NCBI RefSeq assembly: GCF_017876815.1
Contig: NZ_JAGIOS010000003.1
Location: 1,110,001 to 1,142,000, forward strand
Direction of reading: 5' to 3'
Source of the DNA: Sinorhizobium meliloti
GTDB lineage: Bacteria; Pseudomonadota; Alphaproteobacteria; Rhizobiales; Rhizobiaceae
Length of the DNA: 32,000 bases
Under the pieces are notes generated by a model. That model saw only the letters and a list, made by a program, of their open reading frames with translations. It was not told the DNA's origin and did no database searches. The position numbers and the translations under genes are program-made. Below, in pieces: positions 1 through 8,495 of the stretch (the first letter of the stretch is position 1; each line of letters opens with the position of its first letter).

Positions 1-534
1 GTCGCCGATCCGGAGAGCGGCAGGCCGCTCCCGAAAGGCGAAACGGGGATGATCGAGGTGAAGGGCCCGAACGTGTTCAAGGGCTATTGGCGCATGCCCG
101 AAAAGACGCAGAGCGAGTTCCGCGCCGACGGTTTCTTCATAACCGGCGATCTCGGCAGGATCGACGAGCGCGGCTACGTCCATATCGTCGGGCGAGGAAA
201 GGATCTCGTGATCTCCGGCGGTTACAACATTTATCCGAAGGAGGTCGAAACCGAGATCGATCAGATGCCGGGCGTCGTGGAAACGGCTGTGATTGGGCTG
301 CCGCATCCGGATTTCGGCGAAGGCGTCACGGCTGTGGTCGTCCGGAAGCCCGGTGCGGCCATCGACGAACGCGCCATTCTCGATGGTCTGGAAGGTCGCC
401 TCGCGCGCTACAAGCAACCGAAACGGGTGATCTTCGTGGACGACCTGCCGCGCAATACGATGGGCAAAGTCCAGAAGAACGTACTTCGCGAAACATATGC
501 CCGTCTGTACGCAGGAGCCGAAGCGCGTGTGTAG
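1..534 (+). CDS. AMP-dependent acyl-CoA synthetase/ligase, C-terminal part (MatB-like malonyl-CoA synthetase); the 5' end lies outside the window
   Basis: The reading frame is open from base 1. The C-terminal adenylate-forming-enzyme motifs are present: GDLGRIDERGYVHIVGRGKDLVISGGYNIYPKEVE and DDLPRNTMGKVQKNVLR. Confidence 0.85.
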   Translation, partial: VADPESGRPLPKGETGMIEVKGPNVFKGYWRMPEKTQSEFRADGFFITGDLGRIDERGYVHIVGRGKDLVISGGYNIYPKEVETEIDQMPGVVETAVIGLPHPDFGEGVTAVVVRKPGAAIDERAILDGLEGRLARYKQPKRVIFVDDLPRNTMGKVQKNVLRETYARLYAGAEARV

Positions 535-567
535 GCGTCGCGCCCGTATGCCGGAGACATCGGCGCT

Positions 568-1050
568 TTATGAGATGGCTAGGATTTCGAGCTCCTGATC
601 GCCGACACTCGCGACGTCCCCGACAGATTTGCCCATGAGAACCCTTGCCACCGGGGACACGTAGGAGATCGACCCGGCCTTTGGATCGGCTTCATCCTCT
701 CCGACGATCCGGTATTTCTGCACCCGCCCGTCATCACGGCTGAAGGTGACGGTGCTTCCAAAGGCGACTACATCAAAAGAAGCCGGATCGGGGACAAGCT
801 GAGCCGTTCGAACTCTTTCCGCGAAGTAGCGCAGCTCACGCAAGGGGCCGGCCGACTGCCGCCGCCGCTCGTTCACGTCCTCGATCGTGCTTGTGGCATC
901 GAAGGCTTCGCGAGCCTGTTGGAGGTGCAATTCCAGAGCCTTCAATCCCGTTTCGGTGACAAGGTTCGGATGGGGTGAGATCGGCCGGTCAGGCAACAGT
1001 GTTTCCGAGGCCGTTTCGGCACTTTCTTCCTTGATGAAGGCAACGCTCAT
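568..1050 (-). CDS. GreA/GreB-family transcription elongation factor-like protein (Rnk-like)
   Basis: 160-aa ORF. The C-terminal domain, YRIVGEDEADPKAGSISYVSPVARVLMGKSVGDV, is typical of the Gre-factor FKBP-like domain. A GGAG sits about 8 nt upstream of the ATG. Confidence 0.8.
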   Translation of the reverse strand: MSVAFIKEESAETASETLLPDRPISPHPNLVTETGLKALELHLQQAREAFDATSTIEDVNERRRQSAGPLRELRYFAERVRTAQLVPDPASFDVVAFGSTVTFSRDDGRVQKYRIVGEDEADPKAGSISYVSPVARVLMGKSVGDVASVGDQELEILAIS

Positions 1051-1175
1051 CGGCGAACTCCGTTTAGACGTGGCGCTCTCTTCGTACGGAGCGATCGCAC
1101 GTTATTTTCTCGGAACTATATACGGCGATGATAGGAGCCGACAGTGTCGAGTTTCTGCTCATTCTCCCCCCCGAC

Positions 1176-1200
1176 GGAATAGAAGCCTCTCCGTTCCGTT
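1176..1200 (+). promoter_or_regulatory. Candidate ECF-type promoter P1 (GGAATAGA-N-CCGTT) upstream of the 237-aa gene
   Basis: The sequence is GGAATAGAAGCCTCTCCGTTCCGTT: GGAAT, a spacer of exactly 16 nt, then CGTT, lying 31 nt upstream of the ATG at 1231. The same motif recurs at 2544-2568(-), 3402-3426(-) and 3947-3971(+). Confidence 0.55.
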
Positions 1201-1230
1201 ACTCCCGGGCCATTCAACGGGAGAAGCGGG

Positions 1231-1944
1231 ATGTTAAGTTTCCTGAAGAAAGATCCGCAGGTCATTCAGTTTGTCTGCCATCCGGAAGACGATGGCGTCA
1301 TCGCGCCGCCGCTACCGGCCAAATCGGTTCTGCCGGATTGGTTCCGCCGGCTGCCGGCGGTCGACAAAGGGCACCTGTCGGCAACCAACAACGGTCTGAC
1401 CGTCAAACGCTGCATGCCCTTTCTCGATGCTATGACCACCGGCTGGATTCTGCCGATCGCCGCTACGGTGCGCCTTGACGTCAAGGATGACGGCCGCAGC
1501 GTCGATGCAGGCTGGGAGTTCGACCGGGTGATGGTCAGCAACCACGGCGCCCACCAGGTGGCGGGCAATCCGAAAGAGCCCTCCCCGCCCTGCAAGTTTC
1601 ACAATTACTGGTCGATTCGCACGCCGCCGGGATGGAGTTGCCTGTTTCTGCCGCCGCTAAACCGCCCCGGACAGCACTTCGAATGTGTAGCGGGCATTGT
1701 CGATACGGACAGCTATAGCGCTCATATCCATTTTCCGTTCTTCGCGACGGCGCCGGATGGCCTTCACGTCGTCGAAAAGGGAACGCCGCTTGTACAGGTG
1801 ATACCCTTCCGCCGTGCCGATGCGGCGGTCACGGCAGAAATCCGCGCCGAAACCCGCGCGGATGCTACCGAGCGCGAGGCAATCCATCGGAACACCCTCG
1901 CCGGAGAAGGCTGGTATCGCAAGTCGGCGCGCGCCGCGCGCTAG
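1231..1944 (+). CDS. Conserved hypothetical protein, 237 aa, no signal peptide (possibly a DUF6065-type family; not verifiable here)
   Basis: Clean ORF with a GGGAGAAG SD 5 nt upstream of the ATG and GC-rich third codon positions. It is preceded by promoter motif P1. Its stop codon TAG (1942-1944) lies inside the CTAGAGC start of the dispersed repeat. Confidence 0.7.
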   Translation: MLSFLKKDPQVIQFVCHPEDDGVIAPPLPAKSVLPDWFRRLPAVDKGHLSATNNGLTVKRCMPFLDAMTTGWILPIAATVRLDVKDDGRSVDAGWEFDRVMVSNHGAHQVAGNPKEPSPPCKFHNYWSIRTPPGWSCLFLPPLNRPGQHFECVAGIVDTDSYSAHIHFPFFATAPDGLHVVEKGTPLVQVIPFRRADAAVTAEIRAETRADATEREAIHRNTLAGEGWYRKSARAAR

Positions 1945-2052
1945 AGCACTTCCAGGAAGGTACGTGGCGATTTTCCGTCCACAAGTGCATAACTTCAAAG
2001 GGTTAGAGGGCTAGAGCGTTTCATGTCTCGATGAACAGGGAAACACTCTAAA
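1941..2052 (+). repeat. Dispersed intergenic repeat, copy A (CTAGAGCACTTCCAGG...TTTTCCGTCC...CTTCAAAGGGTTAGAG...GATGAAC)
   Basis: It aligns by eye with 14318-14400 (same orientation) and with 23450-23520 and 24550-24617 (opposite orientation). It contains the hairpin GCACTT(1946-1951)/AAGTGC(1983-1988). Confidence 0.6.
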
Positions 2053-2064
2053 CGGTCCGATCAG

Positions 2065-2107
2065 ACAAGAGAGCGGGGGCCGGAATGTCCGGCCCCCGCT
2101 CTCTTGT
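2065..2107. terminator. Strong GC-rich hairpin, probably a bidirectional terminator between convergent genes
   Basis: The sequence is ACAAGAGAGCGGGGGCCGG-aatgt-CCGGCCCCCGCTCTCTTGT, a perfect stem of about 19 bp. It sits between the 237-aa gene (+) and the NSSS-repeat gene (-). Confidence 0.8.
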
Positions 2108-2131
2108 CGCACCTTCAACTTTTCCGCAATC

Positions 2132-2494
2132 TCAGCGCCCTGTGTGCCACAGCTTGCCTGGACGGTACGACCGGTCTGACCGGTTCGAGCTCGAATTGGA
2201 CGAACGATTCGAGGAGGAGTTCGACGAACTGTTCGAGGATGAATTAGAGCTCGAATTCGAGGAACTGTTGGACGAAGAGTTGGAACTCGAATTGCTGGAG
2301 GAGTTGGAACTCGAATTGGATGAGCTGTTGCCGGCGACTATGATCTCGCCGTCGGTCCGGCCCGTCTGGGCGGTTTGCGTCGAAGTGCGATCCACGCCGG
2401 GAAATAAGGGGGCATATTCCCTTGCTTCGGCCGCAGAGCCCACGAATGCCGCCAGGCCGGCAGCGATTGCCTTGTTCGTCCAGTTCTTTGCCAT
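2132..2494 (-). CDS. Small secreted Asn/Ser tetrapeptide-repeat protein (120 aa; signal peptide followed by 13 NSSS-type units)
   Basis: The start was moved to the ATG at 2494, which has an AAGGAG SD 8 nt upstream. The N-terminus MAKNWTNKAIAAGLAAFVGSAAEA looks like a Sec signal peptide with an AxA cleavage site. Promoter motif P2 lies 50 nt upstream, and the terminator hairpin lies downstream. Confidence 0.7.
   Translation of the reverse strand: MAKNWTNKAIAAGLAAFVGSAAEAREYAPLFPGVDRTSTQTAQTGRTDGEIIVAGNSSSNSSSNSSSNSSSNSSSNSSSNSSSNSSSNSSSNSSSNRSSNSSSNRSDRSYRPGKLWHTGR
2174..2329 (-). repeat. 13 tandem 12-nt (4-codon) units encoding NSSS x10, NRSS, NSSS, NRSD
   Basis: Read directly from the sequence. 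The units use different synonymous Ser and Asn codons (AGC/AGT/TCG/TCC/TCT/TCA; AAC/AAT). The repeat is therefore much more regular at the protein level than at the DNA level. Confidence 0.9.
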
Positions 2495-2543
2495 CTCATC
2501 TACTCCTTGTGAAAACCGGACCGGTTCTTCGGTCCGCAGGAGT

Positions 2544-2568
2544 AACGGCCGGTGCGCGCCTCTATTCC
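2544..2568 (-). promoter_or_regulatory. Candidate ECF-type promoter P2 upstream of the NSSS-repeat gene
   Basis: The minus strand reads GGAATAGAGGCGCGCACCGGCCGTT followed by ACTCC. P1 has the same -35 extension (GGAATAGA) and the same CCGTTACTCC -10 region. The spacer is exactly 16 nt. Confidence 0.55.
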
Positions 2569-2590
2569 ATGATCGCAATTTTTGATGCAC

Positions 2591-3376
2591 TTACCGTTGC
2601 GCACCTTGGAGTTCGCTGAGGGCTCTGGCCTCTTCCGCTGCCTCGAGCGGCGCCCCTGCATCGATCGCGGTCAGATAGGCGTCGAGCGTTTCCGTGGAAG
2701 ATGCAGGAGCATAACCGCCGGTGGCTCCGGGTGCGATGACGGCGAACGTCACGCGCCACTCTGACCCGGCGCGGCAGGCAACCGAAACCACTGTTGAGCG
2801 ATCGTCCGAGTCCAGCTCGAACTCGCGGCACAGCGCCTGCGCATTGTCACGGAATGTCGCAATCGCCCGGAAACGTTGGTCGGAACCTGGCAACCGCCGT
2901 TCCTCGCCTGCGGCGACCGTGGCGAGCGCCTCGTCAAGCGCAGGGCTGCCGATGGCGGCAACGCCCGAGCCACCCTCGATCGGCGCCTCGACACTTCCCC
3001 GCAGCCAATATCCGCCGAACCCCGCAACGACAGCCGCCAGAGAGGCGGCGACGGGAGCGAGCCATCGACTTCTGTGAGATTCGTTCGCAGCGCGGCGCGG
3101 GAAAGGCAGGATGCCCGCGCCCGATACCGAAGGTGGCGACGTCTTCTCCATCACCATTCTTTCGACCGCACGCTTGAGCTCGGAAGGTACCGGCTCATCG
3201 AGCAGCGGCTCCATAGCGGCCTTGGCCGCATGGCGCGTTTCGATGAAGAGTGCCACCCGCGCGACCAGCGCATCATCCGTTTCCATCGCTCGTTCTACTT
3301 CGGCAGCAGTCCCGGTATCGAGCTCGCCGTCGGCGAACCGCATCAGTATCTCATCCGAGAAGTCGGCTCTTGTCAT
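2591..3376 (-). CDS. Anti-sigma factor: N-terminal anti-sigma domain without a zinc motif, one TM helix, and a periplasmic domain of about 135 aa
   Basis: An ATGA overlap couples it to the sigma gene (3373-3376). The N-terminus MTRADFSDEILMRFADGELD is typical of ECF anti-sigma factors. The TM segment is WLAPVAASLAAVVAGFGGYW. Confidence 0.8.
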   Translation of the reverse strand: MTRADFSDEILMRFADGELDTGTAAEVERAMETDDALVARVALFIETRHAAKAAMEPLLDEPVPSELKRAVERMVMEKTSPPSVSGAGILPFPRRAANESHRSRWLAPVAASLAAVVAGFGGYWLRGSVEAPIEGGSGVAAIGSPALDEALATVAAGEERRLPGSDQRFRAIATFRDNAQALCREFELDSDDRSTVVSVACRAGSEWRVTFAVIAPGATGGYAPASSTETLDAYLTAIDAGAPLEAAEEARALSELQGAQR

Positions 3377-3912
3377 TCGTTTGCGCCCTTCATTGACTGA
3401 GAACGTCCGGTCGCCTGTGTTATTCCGGCAGCCTCGGCCAAACTCCTGCGTGCCCTCGCCAGTCGGCTCATGACCGTACCGATTGGAATGCCCATCACAT
3501 CGGCCGCTTCGCGATAGGATAGCTCCTCGACGCAGACCAGAAGAACCACCTCCCGCTGCTCGTCCGGCAATTCGGTGATCGCCTCCGCGACGGTCTTGAG
3601 GGTCAGCCGCGCTTCGGTTTCACGCTCGCCAGATGAACCGGCGATGTCATGACGCTCGGTGATATCGTCCTGCACGCCTGCGGTCTTCTGTCGGCGCACC
3701 TGGTCGATCCAGAGATTACGCAGGATACGGAATATCCAAGCATCAAAGCGCGTGCCCGGCTCGAAGCGCTCGGCACTGGCGAGTGCCCGCTCGCAGGCCG
3801 ACTGCACGAGATCATCGGCAACATCACGCGAGCCGCAGAGCGAGATGGCGAAGCGGCGCAGATTGGGCAGGAACGCCATGAGGCGTTCGCCGACATCTTT
3901 CACCGCATTGCT
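3373..3912 (-). CDS. ECF (sigma-70 group 4) RNA polymerase sigma factor
   Basis: Region 2 (DLVQSACERALASAERFEPGTRFDAWIFRILRNLWIDQVRR) and region 4 (LPDEQREVVLLVCVEELSYREAADVMGIPIGTVMSRLARARRSL) are both present. I prefer the ATG at 3912, which has a GGGAG SD, over the GTG at 3978, which has none. Confidence 0.9.
   Translation of the reverse strand, partial: SNAVKDVGERLMAFLPNLRRFAISLCGSRDVADDLVQSACERALASAERFEPGTRFDAWIFRILRNLWIDQVRRQKTAGVQDDITERHDIAGSSGERETEARLTLKTVAEAITELPDEQREVVLLVCVEELSYREAADVMGIPIGTVMSRLARARRSLAEAAGITQATGRSQSMKGANE
3402..3426 (-). promoter_or_regulatory. Candidate ECF-type promoter P4, located inside the 3' end of the sigma ORF and facing the anti-sigma gene
   Basis: The minus strand reads GGAATAACACAGGCGACCGGACGTT. 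The spacer is exactly 16 nt, and CGTTCT matches P3. The CGTT ends 26 nt upstream of the anti-sigma ATG at 3376. Confidence 0.5.
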
Positions 3913-3946
3913 CATCTCCCGAAACTCCGCAATTTGGCTAGAAGAG

Positions 3947-3971
3947 GGAATAGACCGACGACTCAGCCGTT
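3947..3971 (+). promoter_or_regulatory. Candidate ECF-type promoter P3 upstream of the S8 peptidase gene
   Basis: The sequence is GGAATAGACCGACGACTCAGCCGTT, with a spacer of exactly 16 nt, 87 nt upstream of the ATG at 4058. It lies in the divergent sigma/peptidase intergenic region. Confidence 0.55.
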
Positions 3972-4057
3972 CTGACACAATCTACAGGTAGCGGTCTCAT
4001 CGTCCAATGAATGCGCTATCCTCCTATGAGCGTGACCTAGCCGATTGAGGTTTTCGG

Positions 4058-5458
4058 ATGCTGACCAAGTTGAAACTGGCTCTGATCGCTCCCATTGCTG
4101 CAATCGCACTCGTATCCGGCGACATCCTGGCTCCTGGAAACATGATTGTGCGTGAAGTGATCGGAACCGGTCTCGCCTTGGCCGATGACGACGACGATGA
4201 CGGTGGGAGTGGCGGCAACCGCGGATCGGGCGGTTCCGGCCGCTCCGGCTCCTACGGCGCCGGCGCCGGATGGAGTGGCGGCAAGAGCCTGTTTCCATTC
4301 CGAGAGTTCCTGCCACGTCGAAGCATCCCGCGGCGCTCTCGCGCAGCCGCACCCGCTGCGCCGATACGAGCGCCCGATGAGATCGTCGGGCTGGGTTTCA
4401 GTCCGACGGAACTCGGCGAGTTGACAGCCACGGGCTTCGAGGTCCTCGAACGAAACACGATGACGTCATTCAACGCCGAGGTGATCAAGCTTCGCATTCC
4501 CCGCGGGCTGACTCTGGAAGCCGCTCGGCAGCGGGCGCGCGCCGCGGCCCCTCAGGCGGTGATCGACTTCAACCATTATTTCCGGCCGGAGCAGCATCGC
4601 GATGCCCCGTGCGTCACGAGCGACTGCCTGGCACGGAACGTGATCGGCTGGCCCTCGGCTCAAACGGGGCCTAGCAATTGCTCGGCCGGCGTGCGGATCG
4701 GCCTTGTCGATACGGCGATCAATCCCGATCACATCGCATTCGAGGCTCGCAACTTAGAGATCGTCCGTCTCGTCGACGAAGAATTGCCGGAGTCGGGCAG
4801 ACAGCACGGCACCGCTGTCGCGGCTTTGCTTGTCGGCTCAGCCAGTGGCCGTACGCCGGGCCTGATACCGGGTGGCAAGCTCATCGCCGTGGACGCATTT
4901 CATCGGGCGGGACGGCAAGACGACCGATCCGCCGCCTTCGATCTGGCGCGCGCACTCGACCTCCTTGCTGGGCGTCAGGTTCAGGTCATCAATCTCAGCC
5001 TTGCCGGGCCGCCCAATCTCCTGCTTGAACAGGCGGTCAAAAAGACGGGGGAGCGCGGGATCATCATGGTCGCCGCCGCGGGCAATGACGGTCCAAGAGC
5101 CGAGCCCGTCTATCCGGGTGCCTATGAAGAGGTCATTGCCGTCACCGCGACCGACAGGCGCAAACGGCCTTACCGGCGCGCCGGACGCGGAGAGCATATC
5201 GACTTCGCCGCCCCTGGCGTGGCGGTCTGGACAGCAGCCTCGGTCAGCGGCGCGCGTCCGAAGACGGGAACCTCTTTCGCCGCCCCTTTCGTGACCGCGG
5301 CGGTGGCGATGATGAAAGCATCTGAGCCGGAGCTCGCTGCGGAGATGCTCCGCGACAGGCTGACCGGACATGCCGAAGATCTCGGAGATCCGGGAAAGGA
5401 TCCTGTCTTCGGCTGGGGCTTGTTGAACGCGCGAGCGATTTGCAAGGCGAAGTCCTGA
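4058..5458 (+). CDS. Secreted S8-family (subtilisin-like) serine peptidase
   Basis: The catalytic motifs occur in D-H-S order: GLVDTAINPDH, HGTAVAALLVG, AAAGNDG (oxyanion Asn) and GTSFAAPFVTAAVAMM. The N-terminus has a hydrophobic signal-like segment followed by a DDDDDDGGSGGNRGSGGSGRSGSYGAGAG low-complexity tract. Confidence 0.9.
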   Translation: MLTKLKLALIAPIAAIALVSGDILAPGNMIVREVIGTGLALADDDDDDGGSGGNRGSGGSGRSGSYGAGAGWSGGKSLFPFREFLPRRSIPRRSRAAAPAAPIRAPDEIVGLGFSPTELGELTATGFEVLERNTMTSFNAEVIKLRIPRGLTLEAARQRARAAAPQAVIDFNHYFRPEQHRDAPCVTSDCLARNVIGWPSAQTGPSNCSAGVRIGLVDTAINPDHIAFEARNLEIVRLVDEELPESGRQHGTAVAALLVGSASGRTPGLIPGGKLIAVDAFHRAGRQDDRSAAFDLARALDLLAGRQVQVINLSLAGPPNLLLEQAVKKTGERGIIMVAAAGNDGPRAEPVYPGAYEEVIAVTATDRRKRPYRRAGRGEHIDFAAPGVAVWTAASVSGARPKTGTSFAAPFVTAAVAMMKASEPELAAEMLRDRLTGHAEDLGDPGKDPVFGWGLLNARAICKAKS

Positions 5459-5755
5459 GCTAAGCCGCTTCGTCCGGCGCAAGACGTGCATGGGAAGGGC
5501 CAAACCCACCGGCCGGCCACTCGCAACAACCGCACAATCGGCGCTGCGTGAAGACGCTGCAGCGTTGCGAGGTCGATGTGCCTAGCTTTCTTGCGGGCGC
5601 ATTGAATTGTTCGTGATCCCGTGCGACTTTCGAAACGCATAATGGGAGCCTCTTCCGTGAGGTGCTCTACGCTCACTGGCGGCCGGGCGGGTGATTATCG
5701 ACTGTCGGCCGCGTGCGGCCCAAAGCCGAATGTTTCCAAGCGAAAGGACCACGCG

Positions 5756-6229
5756 ATGGCGAAGAATACGATTTGCCTATGGTACGATAAGGACGCCGAG
5801 GCTGCCGCTCGTTTCTACTGCGAGATCTTTCCTGACAGCAGGGTGAGTGCCGTGCACCGCGCACCCGGTGACTACCCCGCGGGCAAAGAGGGCGACGTGT
5901 TGACGGTCGACTTCAGCGTTGCGGGCATTCCCTGTATCGGCCTCAACGGGGGTCCCGCATTCAAGCACAACGAGGCCTTCTCGTTTCAGATCGCCACCGA
6001 CGATCAGGAAGAAACCGACCGCTACTGGAACGCCATCGTCGGCAATGGCGGCAAGGAAAGCGCCTGCGGCTGGTGCAAGGACAAATGGGGGATTTCCTGG
6101 CAGATCACTCCGCGCGTGCTGACCGACGCGATGGCGGCCGGCGGCGACGAAGCAAAGCGGGCGTTCACGGCGATGATGGACATGAAAAAAATAGACGTCG
6201 CTGCAATCGAGGCGGCGCGGCGCGGTTGA
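5756..6229 (+). CDS. VOC/glyoxalase-superfamily protein (PhnB-like, 3-demethylubiquinone-9 3-methyltransferase-domain family)
   Basis: The start was moved to MAKNTICLWYDKDAEAAARFY. The signature ACGWCKDKWGISWQI is typical of this family. Confidence 0.85.
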   Translation: MAKNTICLWYDKDAEAAARFYCEIFPDSRVSAVHRAPGDYPAGKEGDVLTVDFSVAGIPCIGLNGGPAFKHNEAFSFQIATDDQEETDRYWNAIVGNGGKESACGWCKDKWGISWQITPRVLTDAMAAGGDEAKRAFTAMMDMKKIDVAAIEAARRG

Positions 6230-6305
6230 TGCTCCACCGAGACTGCGGCCCAGTTTGCGGCAAGAGCGTGTCCGCGTGTCCCTGTGCAGACGCTCGGACC
6301 GCCGG

Positions 6306-8495
6306 CTAGAAGGAGGTTCCTTGGGCCTTGTCTGTGCCAAGAAGCTGACGAAGTGAATTCTTCGACATCGGCCTGGACAAATGGAATCCCTGCAATTCGT
6401 CACAGCCCAGCTTGCGCAGGATCTCGCTCTGCTCCTCGGTTTCCACGCCTTCGGCGGTGATGCGCAGGCCTTTCGCACGTGCGATGCCGACGATGGACTG
6501 CACGACCGCCACACCACCACCGGGCCGGTCGAAGGCGTGGACGAAAGAGCGATCGATTTTGATCCGGTCGACCTCCAGGCGCTGCAACCGCCCAAATGAA
6601 GAGAATCCCGTACCGAAATCGTCAAGTGCGAACTTGACGCCGAACTCGCGTAGTGCCGTGATGTTTTTTTCGCAGACGCCGGCTTCGTCAAGGAGAGCAG
6701 TTTCGGTGATCTCGAGCTCCAGTCTCGACGGCTCGATCCCGAACTGGCGCAGCAGTGAGAGAACTTGAGCAGCATAATGGCGCTGTGCAAGCTCGACCGC
6801 CGAGACGTTGACTGCAATGTCGAGACCCGGAAATTCACGCGCGGTAGAACAGGCTTCCTTCAGCACGAACGCGCCGAGCCGATCGATGAGGCCGGCAGTC
6901 TCCGCAAGCGGAACGAAGGCATCCGGTGCTATAGGGCCTTTGCTCGGATGCCGCCAGCGAATGAGAGCTTCCAGCGAGCTTATCTCGTGCGACTGCGCAG
7001 AATATACGGGCTGATAGAAGACTTCGAGCTGATTGCCGGCGTCCAGCGCCGCACGCAGATCCTGTTCCAGGTCCCGTTTCGTTCTGATCAGGTCGTCCAT
7101 ATGAGGACCAAAGACTGCGTAGCGGTTCCGCCCGGCCGATTTGGCGTGGTAAAGCGCGATATCGGCCTTCCGCGTGATCTCGATGGGGTCGGCGTCATTT
7201 CCGGTCGCGACCGCCACACCTATCGAAAGCCCGATGAGAATGGGCTGTCCGTCTATCTCGAAAGGTCGGCGGATTGCAGCGATCAGCGCGTCACAGAGTT
7301 TCTCCACCTCGTCCTGGCGGGTACGCGCGACGATGATGGTAAACTCATCACCACCAATTCTGGAAATCGCGGCACCAGCAGCGGTTTCCTTAAGCCGCTT
7401 CGCGACCTCGACCATCAGCCGATCGCCAACGGGATGGCCGAGTGTGTCGTTCACTTGCTTGAAGCGGTCGAGATCGAGATACAGAAGAGCATTGGCTTGA
7501 TCGATTGTCGACGTCGCGACGACCCGCGCCAGCAACCGGTTGAAAGACGCACGGTTGGCGAGCCCGGTCAACGGATCGTGACGCGCCAGATGGTCGAGCT
7601 CCGCCTGGCTTTCCTGCAGGCGTCTCGACCGCCTCCGCAGTACGACACTGAGCGCGCTCGTGAGGGCAAAAAGGAGGGCGCCGGCGACGAGAAGCACAGG
7701 CGCCGTGGCCTTCATCACATCGGCACCGGGTCTGAACGGGAGCCAGGAGAAATATCCTATCGTTTCTCGGGATGATGAAACGATCGGAGCATAGGACCGC
7801 TGTCGACCGAGTTCCGGCAAAACAGAAAAGCGCAGGTCCTCAAAGCCATAATCGTCACCGAGATGCGTCAGGAAATCGCCGTCGAGAAAACGGACCGCTA
7901 AGTGGAGATATTCCCTGCCGGGCTCCTGAACAATATCACCGGTGTCCGACACGATCGGCTTCACGCTGATAATCGCCGGGCGGCCCGCGATGCGTACGAG
8001 ATCGCTCTCGCCGATGGACAGCACCTGCTCACTCGTTCCTCCCTCGTCGCCTGCTGCGAGCCGCTCTTGCAGCTTGGCGATGAGCGGCATTGCTTCGGGT
8101 CCTATGTTGCTGAAAGCTTCCTGCTCGTTGGTCTGGCCGGCAAGAAAGGCGTATAACGGCTTACGATCCGGACTGATCACGAATGCGCCGTCGTGTCGGA
8201 AATAGCTGTTCATCCAGCTACCCAGGTTAGAATCGACCCACCGCGGATCCCATTCCTGCGACACTTTTCTGACGGCGTCATCCCAAACGGTGGCACTCTC
8301 CTGATCATGGGCGATGCTACCTTGCATCTTGGAGATGACAAGCTCGACGAGGTGTTGCTGCCGCTTCACCGCCAAAGCGTCCGATTGCTGCGCCGACCAG
8401 CGGACGGCCAGGTATATGCCTCCCATCAAGGCCATTGCGATGGCCAAGGGCAGCATCCACCTGAAAACCGCGACTTTGCCAGCCACAAACCTCAT
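6306..8495 (-). CDS. Membrane-bound GGDEF-EAL protein (diguanylate cyclase/phosphodiesterase) with a periplasmic CHASE4-like sensor
   Basis: RIGGDEFTII (GGDEF) and LEALIRW (EAL) are both intact. Two TM segments flank a sensor region of about 240 aa. The start was set at the ATG at 8495, which has an AGGAGGAG SD 6 nt upstream. Confidence 0.9.
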   Translation of the reverse strand: MRFVAGKVAVFRWMLPLAIAMALMGGIYLAVRWSAQQSDALAVKRQQHLVELVISKMQGSIAHDQESATVWDDAVRKVSQEWDPRWVDSNLGSWMNSYFRHDGAFVISPDRKPLYAFLAGQTNEQEAFSNIGPEAMPLIAKLQERLAAGDEGGTSEQVLSIGESDLVRIAGRPAIISVKPIVSDTGDIVQEPGREYLHLAVRFLDGDFLTHLGDDYGFEDLRFSVLPELGRQRSYAPIVSSSRETIGYFSWLPFRPGADVMKATAPVLLVAGALLFALTSALSVVLRRRSRRLQESQAELDHLARHDPLTGLANRASFNRLLARVVATSTIDQANALLYLDLDRFKQVNDTLGHPVGDRLMVEVAKRLKETAAGAAISRIGGDEFTIIVARTRQDEVEKLCDALIAAIRRPFEIDGQPILIGLSIGVAVATGNDADPIEITRKADIALYHAKSAGRNRYAVFGPHMDDLIRTKRDLEQDLRAALDAGNQLEVFYQPVYSAQSHEISSLEALIRWRHPSKGPIAPDAFVPLAETAGLIDRLGAFVLKEACSTAREFPGLDIAVNVSAVELAQRHYAAQVLSLLRQFGIEPSRLELEITETALLDEAGVCEKNITALREFGVKFALDDFGTGFSSFGRLQRLEVDRIKIDRSFVHAFDRPGGGVAVVQSIVGIARAKGLRITAEGVETEEQSEILRKLGCDELQGFHLSRPMSKNSLRQLLGTDKAQGTSF

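Follow-up and report, generated by a model that had tools for sequence, protein, structure and literature searches.

The 32-kb stretch of Sinorhizobium meliloti DNA analyzed here (GCF_017876815.1, NZ_JAGIOS010000003.1, 1,110,001–1,142,000 of the forward strand; referred to as the window, whose coordinates are used unless another locus or strain is named) holds the locus of rpoE6, which encodes an extracytoplasmic function (ECF) sigma factor of group ECF26, on the symbiotic megaplasmid. Its sequence matches the symbiotic megaplasmids of S. meliloti SM11 and RU11/001 at 100% identity and recurs in 68 Sinorhizobium plasmid records; the locus sits on pSymA, at ~80 kb, in strains 1021 and 2011. Alongside the genes for RpoE6, its anti-sigma factor EcfR6, and a secreted S8 peptidase (SMa0142) lie two convergent genes, one encoding a DUF6065 protein (SMa0148) and the other a small peptide with a long tract of Asn-Ser-Ser-Ser units, hereafter the NSSS gene (Table 1). 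The latter is a real gene that is routinely mis-annotated, as established by its substitution pattern, its mapped transcription start site (TSS), and its ribosome binding site (RBS). The original prediction, which drew attention to this open reading frame (ORF) from the sequence of the window, had its coordinates right and left the strand unstated; the gene occupies the minus strand.

The NSSS protein is Cys-free and laid out as a pre-pro-peptide, comprising, in order, a predicted Sec-type signal peptide (MAKNWTNKAIAAGLAAFVGSAAEA), a linker that begins with REY and ends with DGEIIVAG, the repeat tract, and a basic/aromatic tail (RSYRPGKLWHTGR). The ORF and its translation confirm the architecture originally described, with the linker measuring 31 a.a. 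As judged by inspection and hydropathy, the predicted signal peptide has a basic n-region (K3, K8), a 14-residue hydrophobic core (AIAAGLAAFVGSAA), and the sequence A-E-A followed by R; the A-x-A site is retained across orthologues. From these features, we infer that the product is exported through Sec. Ser and Asn make up 53% of the mature part, and hydropathy stays at about −1.5 along the whole tract. No Pfam or NCBIfam family matches the peptide, no PDB entry describes it, and literature searches with NSSSNSSS, "Asn-Ser-Ser-Ser", and DUF6065 returned nothing relevant, in agreement with the earlier statement that no characterized protein of this architecture is known. An Rfam scan of the window returned no RNA family.

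Table 1. Coordinates of the NSSS gene, its signals, and the surrounding features within the window.
Feature	Position (nt.)	Strand	Remarks
Malonyl-CoA synthase, 3′ end	1–534	+	
GreA/GreB-like paralogue	568–1050	−	160 a.a
RpoE6-dependent promoter of the DUF6065 gene	1176–1200	+	same sequence as the SMa0148 promoter listed in PMC6180224, Table 1
DUF6065 protein (SMa0148)	1231–1944	+	237 a.a; convergent with the NSSS gene; no signal peptide
Perfect 21-bp inverted repeat	2064–2108	.	between the convergent NSSS and DUF6065 genes; dG −52 kcal/mol, z = −7.6
NSSS peptide, coding sequence	2494→2132 (stop 2134–2132)	−	363 nt including stop; 120 a.a; ATG start
Basic/aromatic C-terminal tail	2135–2173	−	
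Repeat tract, 13 four-residue units	2174–2329	−	NSSS ×10, NRSS, NSSS, NRSD
Junction D-G-E-I-I-V-A-G	2330–2353	−	directly precedes the first repeat Asn; conserved in the family
Predicted Sec-type signal peptide, a.a 1–24	2423–2494	−	read from sequence and hydropathy
E/L/D/F-rich ORF, annotated SMa0146	2196–2585 (PGAP start 2196; open frame 2085–2585)	+	judged not to be a gene
RBS AAGGAG	2508→2503	−	8 nt ahead of the ATG
RpoE6 (ECF26)-type promoter of the NSSS gene	2568→2544	−	GGAATA-N15-CGTT; published TSS at 2536
ecfR6 (SMa0144), anti-sigma factor EcfR6	3376→2591	−	
Internal RpoE6 promoter driving ecfR6	3426→3402	−	within rpoE6
rpoE6 (SMa0143), ECF26 sigma factor	3915→3373	−	
RpoE6 promoter of SMa0142	3947–3971	+	
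SMa0142, secreted S8 (subtilisin-like) peptidase	4058–5458	+	divergent from rpoE6
SMa0139, VOC/glyoxalase family	5756–6229 (about)	+	published RpoE6 target with a variant promoter

The NSSS gene is transcribed from its own promoter, which is of the RpoE6 type and agrees with the ECF-type promoter originally proposed. The motif (GGAATAGAGGCGCGCACCGGCCGTT) has the form GGAATA-N15-CGTT, which occurs four times in the window (0.01 expected), and the other three occurrences, with identical N15 spacing, coincide with promoters for which RpoE6 dependence has been mapped experimentally (SMa0148, ecfR6, and SMa0142). A published TSS on the NSSS strand of strain 1021, SMa_TSS0230 (first bases CGG, 42-nt 5′ untranslated region, 95 reads), was assigned to a "new ORF", SMa_ORF_1, of 387 nt running from ATG to TGA with the RBS given as AGGAG (Schlueter et al. 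2013, PMC3616915). SMa_ORF_1 is the NSSS gene, with 15 units in that allele, and its start site corresponds to a position in the window 8 nt 3′ of the CGTT element and 42 nt 5′ of the ATG, such that a transcript, the absence of which would have spoken against the gene, is already documented. The ORF is thus uncharacterized, as first thought, yet not new: it has stood since 2013 as a single line of a supplementary table that was never taken up in a description, and later work went back to the opposite-strand annotation SMa0146. In orthologous loci, the promoter motif lies 67–77 nt upstream of the start codon in 41/43 of those with an ECF module, is found in 16/18 of those with no regulator within range, and occurs in 1/12 of those with a two-component system alone. 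The inverted repeat that separates the NSSS and DUF6065 genes is probably a bidirectional terminator; the "strong terminator" first described holds as far as the strength of the hairpin is concerned, but there is no U-tract on the NSSS strand, and a terminator scan made no call there for lack of a T-run.

The regularity of the tract is maintained on the peptide and not on the DNA, a point made in the original prediction that both codon randomization and the substitution pattern bear out. All six Ser codons (TCG 12, TCC 11, AGC 4, AGT 4, TCA 3, TCT 2) and both Asn codons (AAC 7, AAT 6) are used, and Ser codon use does not differ between the tract and the long ORFs of the window (chi-square p = 0.22). 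The ten NSSS units share a mean pairwise nucleotide identity of 0.585, which equals the level given by random synonymous codons (0.612 ± 0.043), and the DNA repeat is therefore fully randomized at synonymous sites; this rules out recent slippage as the origin of the whole tract. Tandem Repeats Finder detected only weak 24- and 36-nt periodicity, and the longest exact DNA repeat in the tract is 18 nt. SM11 and S. medicae both have 13 units and 2011 and S. fredii both have 15, with all changes in frame, and a single 24-nt (two-unit) duplication separates strains 1021/2011 from SM11. The repeat frame is hence kept in relatives, as the earlier proposal demanded, and its sole break there is an additional C in a C5 run (equivalent to nt. 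~2408–2412) in two assemblies, S. meliloti AK57 (L099) and R11 (L103). Both assemblies come from one project and also carry an extra G or C in homopolymers of the hairpin, so this frameshift is most likely a sequencing error and not a sign of a pseudogene. Separately, an Ensifer metagenome-assembled genome (MAG; L050, nt. 5781–6139) has the NSSS gene in two frames that meet inside the tract, which points either to a pseudogene or to misassembly of the repeat.

On the opposite strand, the same DNA is annotated as SMa0146 (174 a.a in strain 1021; "hypothetical protein" in PGAP records), a choice of strand that PGAP and GenBank make not only for S. meliloti but also for S. medicae, Phyllobacterium, and a Rhizobium species. 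A collection of ~15 billion proteins has no exact entry for the NSSS proteins of SM11, 2011, or S. medicae and contains the antisense products as clusters of 73 and 13 members, including AAK64735.1 ("hypothetical protein SMa0146"). The substitution pattern across the tract identifies the NSSS frame as the one under selection and the SMa0146 ORF as a by-product of the repeat. Between S. meliloti SM11 and S. medicae, 23 of 162 nt differ, 21 of them at third positions, leaving the NSSS frame untouched (0/54 a.a) and altering 7/53 a.a in the antisense frame. Between S. meliloti 2011 and S. fredii, 60 of 186 nt differ, with nine switches between TCN and AGY codons, and the toll is 2/62 a.a in the NSSS frame against 27/61 a.a in the antisense frame, where acidic residues are even swapped for hydrophobic ones. 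The open antisense register shares its third codon positions with the NSSS frame, and a long antisense ORF arises automatically because, by codon logic, this register cannot hold a stop codon opposite AAY, TCN, or AGY.

That SMa0146 might nonetheless be the gene, with the NSSS frame as its shadow, is in our view highly implausible, although the annotation of several species speaks for it, as do two sets of expression data. Upon RpoE6 overexpression, log2 fold changes were 6.5 for SMa0148 (the strongest target), 4.7 for SMa0142, and 2.3 for SMa0146, the latter listed as a "hypothetical protein" target with no start site reported (Lang et al. 2018, PMC6180224). The probe-set prefixes in Data Set S5 and the primers for 5′ rapid amplification of cDNA ends (5′-RACE) of that study identify SMa0146 as the plus-strand E/L-rich ORF; the array probes published for the NSSS locus cover this opposite strand only, and the supplement contains no intergenic probes for the NSSS strand. 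Transcription reading through from SMa0148, which is located on the plus strand ahead of SMa0146, can account for the signal of the latter. In addition, three internal start sites opposite the NSSS gene, SMa_TSS0231–0233, were reported with 69, 30, and 410 reads (PMC3616915); they map to pSymA 80520–80764 (−) of strain 1021, the plus strand of the window within nt. 2132–2494, and may represent antisense RNAs or processed read-through of the DUF6065 gene. The SMa0146 ORF itself has no periodicity, conserved start, or promoter motif, and the 5′-RACE attempt yielded no reported start site. The opposite-strand ORF, whose expression had been named as grounds for abandoning the NSSS gene, is not the conserved one of the two. 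S. meliloti 1021 bears a wrong-strand annotation at one of the most strongly RpoE6-induced loci, and low-complexity repeat genes with codons that bar antisense stops represent a systematic blind spot of gene callers.

Database searches that used the protein or a family profile as query yielded only 45–56 called proteins of the NSSS type, nearly all of them metagenomic singletons. In all of these, a signal peptide, a variable linker, and a hydrophobic-A-G junction precede the (N-x-S-S)n tract, which a short charged tail follows. We therefore refer to genomes: scanning a single genome for each species revealed a close DUF6065 relative in 328 genomes, the best 80 of which provide the locus counts given here, with neighbor ORF clustering over 86 loci and unit statistics over 82 proteins (1128 units). 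An NSSS-type ORF is adjacent to the DUF6065 gene in 71/80 loci, in tandem or convergent orientation and usually 100–600 nt apart; of the nine others, two truly lack such an ORF and seven border on a contig end or a masked stretch. The pairing was also recovered when starting from the peptide side. The two genes form a cassette across Alphaproteobacteria, and the taxa represented include Sinorhizobium/Ensifer, Mesorhizobium, Rhizobium, Shinella, Aminobacter, Phyllobacterium, Inquilinus, Elioraea, Dongia, Hyphomicrobiaceae, and one Hydrogenophaga MAG.

Family proteins are 96–194 a.a long and contain 4 to 23 units (median 13.5), most of which are NSSS (73%), followed by NSNS (10%, 114/1128), NGSS (3%), NRSS (2.7%), and NTSS (2.5%), so that position 2 is tolerant while Ser occupies position 3 in 89% and position 4 in 93% of units. 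The tract is preceded by a junction with the consensus D-G-x-[ILF]-[IQ]-[VF]-A-G/N (the slash marks the boundary to the first repeat Asn), in which, among 82 members, G is found at −1 in 66, A at −2 in 63, V/F at −3 in 62, G at −7 in 44, and D at −8 in 44. The tails are Arg/Trp-rich and end in Arg, or consist of DDD, or end in LLRQR.

The regulatory surroundings of the pair vary. Over the 86 loci, the recurrent neighbors are an anti-sigma factor gene (43), an S8 peptidase gene (40, of which 38 also have the anti-sigma gene), a sigma factor gene (37), a HAMP-HisKA kinase gene (19), and an OmpR-type regulator gene (16), with 14 of the 19 kinase loci devoid of an ECF module; the clustering revealed no further recurrent neighbor. 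From these counts, the NSSS and DUF6065 genes form the constant unit and the regulatory module is therefore interchangeable, with the S8 gene going with sigma and anti-sigma and a two-component system often substituting for all three. The original prediction linked the NSSS gene to the S8 peptidase by co-regulation and synteny; the two do share a promoter type and, in about half of the family loci, the same sigma/anti-sigma/S8 surroundings, but the constant partner is DUF6065, which it had left unlinked. The VOC/glyoxalase and GreA-like genes of the window were also considered as conserved partners and discarded, as they are not kept beside the cassette in the 80 loci.

DUF6065 is a large family (~2,500 representatives at 50% identity, phage members included), and sequence-only searches of the PDB with the S. 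meliloti protein returned nothing significant. An AlphaFold model based on a diverse 50-sequence alignment (28–53% identity) reached a mean predicted local distance difference test score (pLDDT) of 94.5 and a predicted template modeling score (pTM) of 0.88; a model from a shallow alignment with all members at least 70% identical (pLDDT 39.7) was discarded. With the former, the top 50 Foldseek matches in the PDB were trimeric dUTPases except for one dCTP deaminase (probability 1.0, E = 5e-5 to 1e-3, target-normalized TM score 0.5–0.73, identity 10–19%), and the annotated viral fold matches are dUTPases too. In a profile alignment, the DUF6065 segment sGiVDtDkY falls on dUTPase motif III and GtPlvQvI on motif IV, and D160, Q189, K59, C61, H105, K122, S136, and R195 are near-invariant; the C-terminus is helical and contains an invariant Tyr 229. 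The model and alignment thus lead us to assign DUF6065, with confidence, a predicted dUTPase-like fold that retains the catalytic Asp (motif III) and Gln (motif IV). Its alternative assignment as a cupin/JmjC-type hydroxylase, suggested by the JmjC_2 partner of the peptide in cyanobacteria (see below), was rejected given the missing HxD...H motif, a single near-invariant His, and the dUTPase-like fold. As a side observation, two loci with distant DUF6065 members (L097, nt. 2506–5472, and L098, nt. 355–6075; 28% identity) have a T4 gp15-type tail gene nearby, and their neighbors include a second DUF6065-like paralogue, a P4H-type 2-oxoglutarate-Fe(II) oxygenase, in one case a PF11397 N-acetylglucosamine (GlcNAc)-transferase, and repetitive Tyr/Gly/Pro- or Gly/Ala/Ser-rich fiber-like proteins.

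In cyanobacteria (Leptolyngbya and relatives), a JmjC_2 gene replaces the DUF6065 gene and directly follows the NSSS gene in 3/3 loci (L001, nt. 6001–7703; L003, nt. 6001–7780; L105, nt. 3001–4715), which are otherwise unrelated in their surroundings. The encoded protein is a relative of NO66/MINA53/YcfD/YxbC (E down to 1e-18) with its HxD...H motif intact. The repeat here is of the form (N-x-S-S)n, with position 2 often Asp or Glu and position 1 sometimes Asp.

Because a gene for a cytoplasmic enzyme always adjoins the NSSS gene, and one of the alternatives is a bona fide protein-modifying enzyme, the peptide is most simply taken to be an enzyme substrate. Among the explanations considered, we favor, tentatively and from genomic linkage, the one in which the NSSS repeat peptide is exported and may well be what a dedicated enzyme of the cytoplasm, DUF6065, acts on. 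The tract would be modified by DUF6065 in the cytoplasm ahead of Sec export, as in other Sec-exported modified peptides. Since DUF6065 keeps the catalytic Asp and Gln, attack on a nucleotide α-phosphate would be the most likely chemistry; the acceptor or beneficiary would be the side chain of a Ser or Asn in the peptide, either by nucleotidylylation or by transfer from a nucleotide-activated group. In cyanobacteria, the NO66/YcfD-type JmjC protein hydroxylase would stand in for DUF6065. The exported product would be a highly hydrophilic, probably decorated, polymer-like peptide acting in the envelope under the stress that induces RpoE6. The S8 peptidase would belong to the signaling module and may also trim the pro-region at A-G/N. 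In its full generality, namely that (N-x-S-S)n peptides are exported ribosomal polymers whose Ser/Asn residues are decorated repeat by repeat by DUF6065 or, in cyanobacteria, by JmjC, and that they constitute the output of the RpoE6/ECF26-S8 pathway, this picture is possible but somewhat unlikely.

A number of observations weigh against DUF6065 acting on the peptide. The proposed modification is deduced from gene linkage, and two full-length DUF6065 loci (L054 and L056) have no NSSS gene within 5 kb, while distant DUF6065 members occur in phage-like contigs without NSSS genes. DUF6065 has no recognizable Gly-rich motif V (RGxxGFGSTG-like), and its extra invariant residues K59, C61, and H105 leave the chemistry unreadable. 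No dUTPase-fold enzyme is known to act on a peptide. The A-G/N junction persists with either partner enzyme and without the S8 peptidase, and because of this, a role as recognition or cleavage site is a guess. Finally, deletion of rpoE6-ecfR6 gave no symbiotic phenotype (PMC6180224).

Alternatively, the peptide might be exported unmodified, as a disordered, extremely hydrophilic Ser/Asn polymer, with DUF6065 a co-regulated nucleotide-handling enzyme of the cytoplasm that does not touch it. Possible roles of such a polymer include a shield (for hydration or against desiccation), a spacer, a brush, and a polar-zipper matrix, with the Arg/Trp tail as a tether to anionic envelope components. The composition and hydropathy of the mature part fit this view, as do the nucleotide-hydrolase motifs kept in DUF6065, the resemblance of tails such as RWRWR, RNWRFR, and RGWRGWRR to short cationic Trp/Arg membrane-binding motifs, and the overlap of RpoE6 targets with the RpoE2 general stress regulon (PMC6180224). 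It leaves unexplained, however, why the two genes stay adjacent in 71/80 species while regulators and orientation vary, and why a protein hydroxylase gene follows each cyanobacterial version; moreover, many family members end in DDD and not in a cationic tail. We regard it as rather unlikely. The peptide could instead be a dedicated substrate, inhibitor, or signaling partner of the S8 peptidase and anti-sigma factor, for instance if cleavage at A-G/N freed a ligand that feeds back on EcfR6. The shared promoter type of the S8, sigma/anti-sigma, and NSSS genes, their synteny in about half of the family loci, the conserved junction, and scores of the S8 peptidase against leader-processing subtilases (QhpE, PatA; below curated cut-offs) all agree with this idea, which the original prediction had raised as one option. 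It is the weaker reading: the NSSS-DUF6065 pair with its intact A-G junction persists in two-component loci that have neither the S8 gene nor the ECF pair, and the S8 gene tracks the anti-sigma gene (38 loci with both) and not the peptide. A dedicated S8 partnership is therefore improbable.

The repeat might also serve as a glycan carrier, through N-glycosylation at N-x-S or O-glycosylation of Ser, yielding a mucin-like periplasmic or surface glycopeptide. PglB-type enzymes need an acidic residue at −2, and the tract has none. The high occupancy of position 3 by Ser (~89%) with a variable position 2 matches the N-x-S sequon that had been noted in every unit of the S. meliloti peptide, but the ~10% of family units that read NSNS destroy it, which weakens the sequon idea. 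One cyanobacterial locus adjoins two GT4 glycosyltransferase genes and a Wzm/Wzt exporter, a neighborhood that is not repeated in the other cyanobacterial loci, and no recurrent glycosyltransferase or oligosaccharyltransferase gene was found among the 86 loci. In principle, UDP-sugars could be accommodated by a uridine pocket of the dUTPase type. On balance, glycosylation of the tract seems very improbable.

Should DUF6065 indeed modify the NSSS peptide, it would be the first dUTPase-fold enzyme acting on a peptide, for example by Ser O-nucleotidylylation, and the products would form a new class of modified peptides. The RpoE6/ECF26-S8 pathway, which has no known signal or phenotype, gains a candidate output in the form of a putatively exported repeat peptide and a cytoplasmic enzyme. 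DUF6065 gains a predicted fold, conserved catalytic-type residues, and a candidate substrate, and the peptide offers a testable substrate for two uncharacterized families.

Several other features of the locus deserve mention. The GreA/GreB-like and malonyl-CoA synthase genes flank the locus in S. meliloti and S. medicae but not in other genera. A small RNA, SMa_sRNA_10, has been reported opposite SMa0139. In the S8 peptidase, residues ~42–75 (nt. ~4180–4290, plus strand), which follow the signal peptide, consist of DDDDDD and then a Gly/Ser-rich low-complexity stretch (GGSGGNRGSGGSGRSGSYGAGAGWSGG), and a distant S8 orthologue (L059) has a similar segment.

We rate the peptide–enzyme pair as lying outside the known kinds, with its putative function read from genomic context. 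As for ribosomally synthesized and post-translationally modified peptides (RiPPs), a short precursor gene is coupled here to that of a candidate tailoring enzyme, in 71/80 loci for DUF6065 and in 3/3 cyanobacterial loci for JmjC_2; the dUTPase-like fold places DUF6065 outside the recognized RiPP enzyme classes, and it matched no Pfam or NCBIfam RiPP enzyme family. The nearest analogue in logic would be the bufferins, Sec-signal-bearing RiPP precursors that are modified by cytoplasmic MNIO/DUF692 enzymes and often controlled by ECF sigma factors. Like these, the NSSS gene encodes a small precursor with a predicted Sec signal beside a cytoplasmic enzyme lacking a signal peptide, is predicted to be under ECF sigma/anti-sigma control, and has a product that presumably acts in the periplasm. 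Unlike bufferins, the peptide has no Cys and no DUF2282-type core, carries a long tetrapeptide repeat instead, and is paired with a dUTPase-like fold and not an MNIO. No DUF692 gene is found among the recurrent neighbors in the 86 loci, while S. meliloti does have one in its RpoE7 regulon (PMC6180224, Table 1).

Another RiPP precursor, HxsA, has His-Xaa-Ser repeats, is matured by radical-SAM enzymes, and has no Sec signal peptide; it resembles the NSSS peptide as a small peptide of many 3–4 residue units with a dedicated enzyme gene adjoining, and differs in unit, in enzyme class, and in the predicted Sec signal peptide of the latter. The serine-rich repeat protein (SRRP) adhesins of Gram-positive bacteria (Fap1, GspB) and eukaryotic phosphophoryn, with its (Asp-Ser-Ser)n tract, are Ser-rich repeat proteins that undergo modification ahead of export and need dense glycosylation or phosphorylation to function. 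The NSSS tract is likewise Ser-dominated and of short period, with codon diversity beneath a regular peptide, but its unit is different and no homology exists. Those proteins are also far larger, contain folded domains, and depend on accessory Sec systems and GtfA/B, or on kinases, and none of the SRRP hallmarks (SecA2/Y2, GtfA/B, an LPXTG anchor, very long SR regions) occurs in the 86 loci. With the trimeric dUTPase/dCTP deaminase superfamily, DUF6065 shares its predicted fold, motif III (G-x-[IV]-D-x-D-Y), and motif IV (G-x-x-[ILV]-[AV]-Q). In contrast to dUTPases, it is ~90 residues longer, with an N-terminal extension bearing the invariant K59/C61, has no recognizable motif V, and is nearly always encoded beside a repeat-peptide gene, as no dUTPase is known to be. 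Finally, ECF26 modules with a divergent serine protease are known from the classification of Staron 2009 (cited in PMC6180224), and the window, with rpoE6, ecfR6, and SMa0142 behind GGAATA/CGTT promoters, conforms to this type. Published accounts give SMa0146 (on the wrong strand) and SMa0148 merely as "hypothetical" targets and mention neither the NSSS peptide nor its near-constant association with DUF6065.

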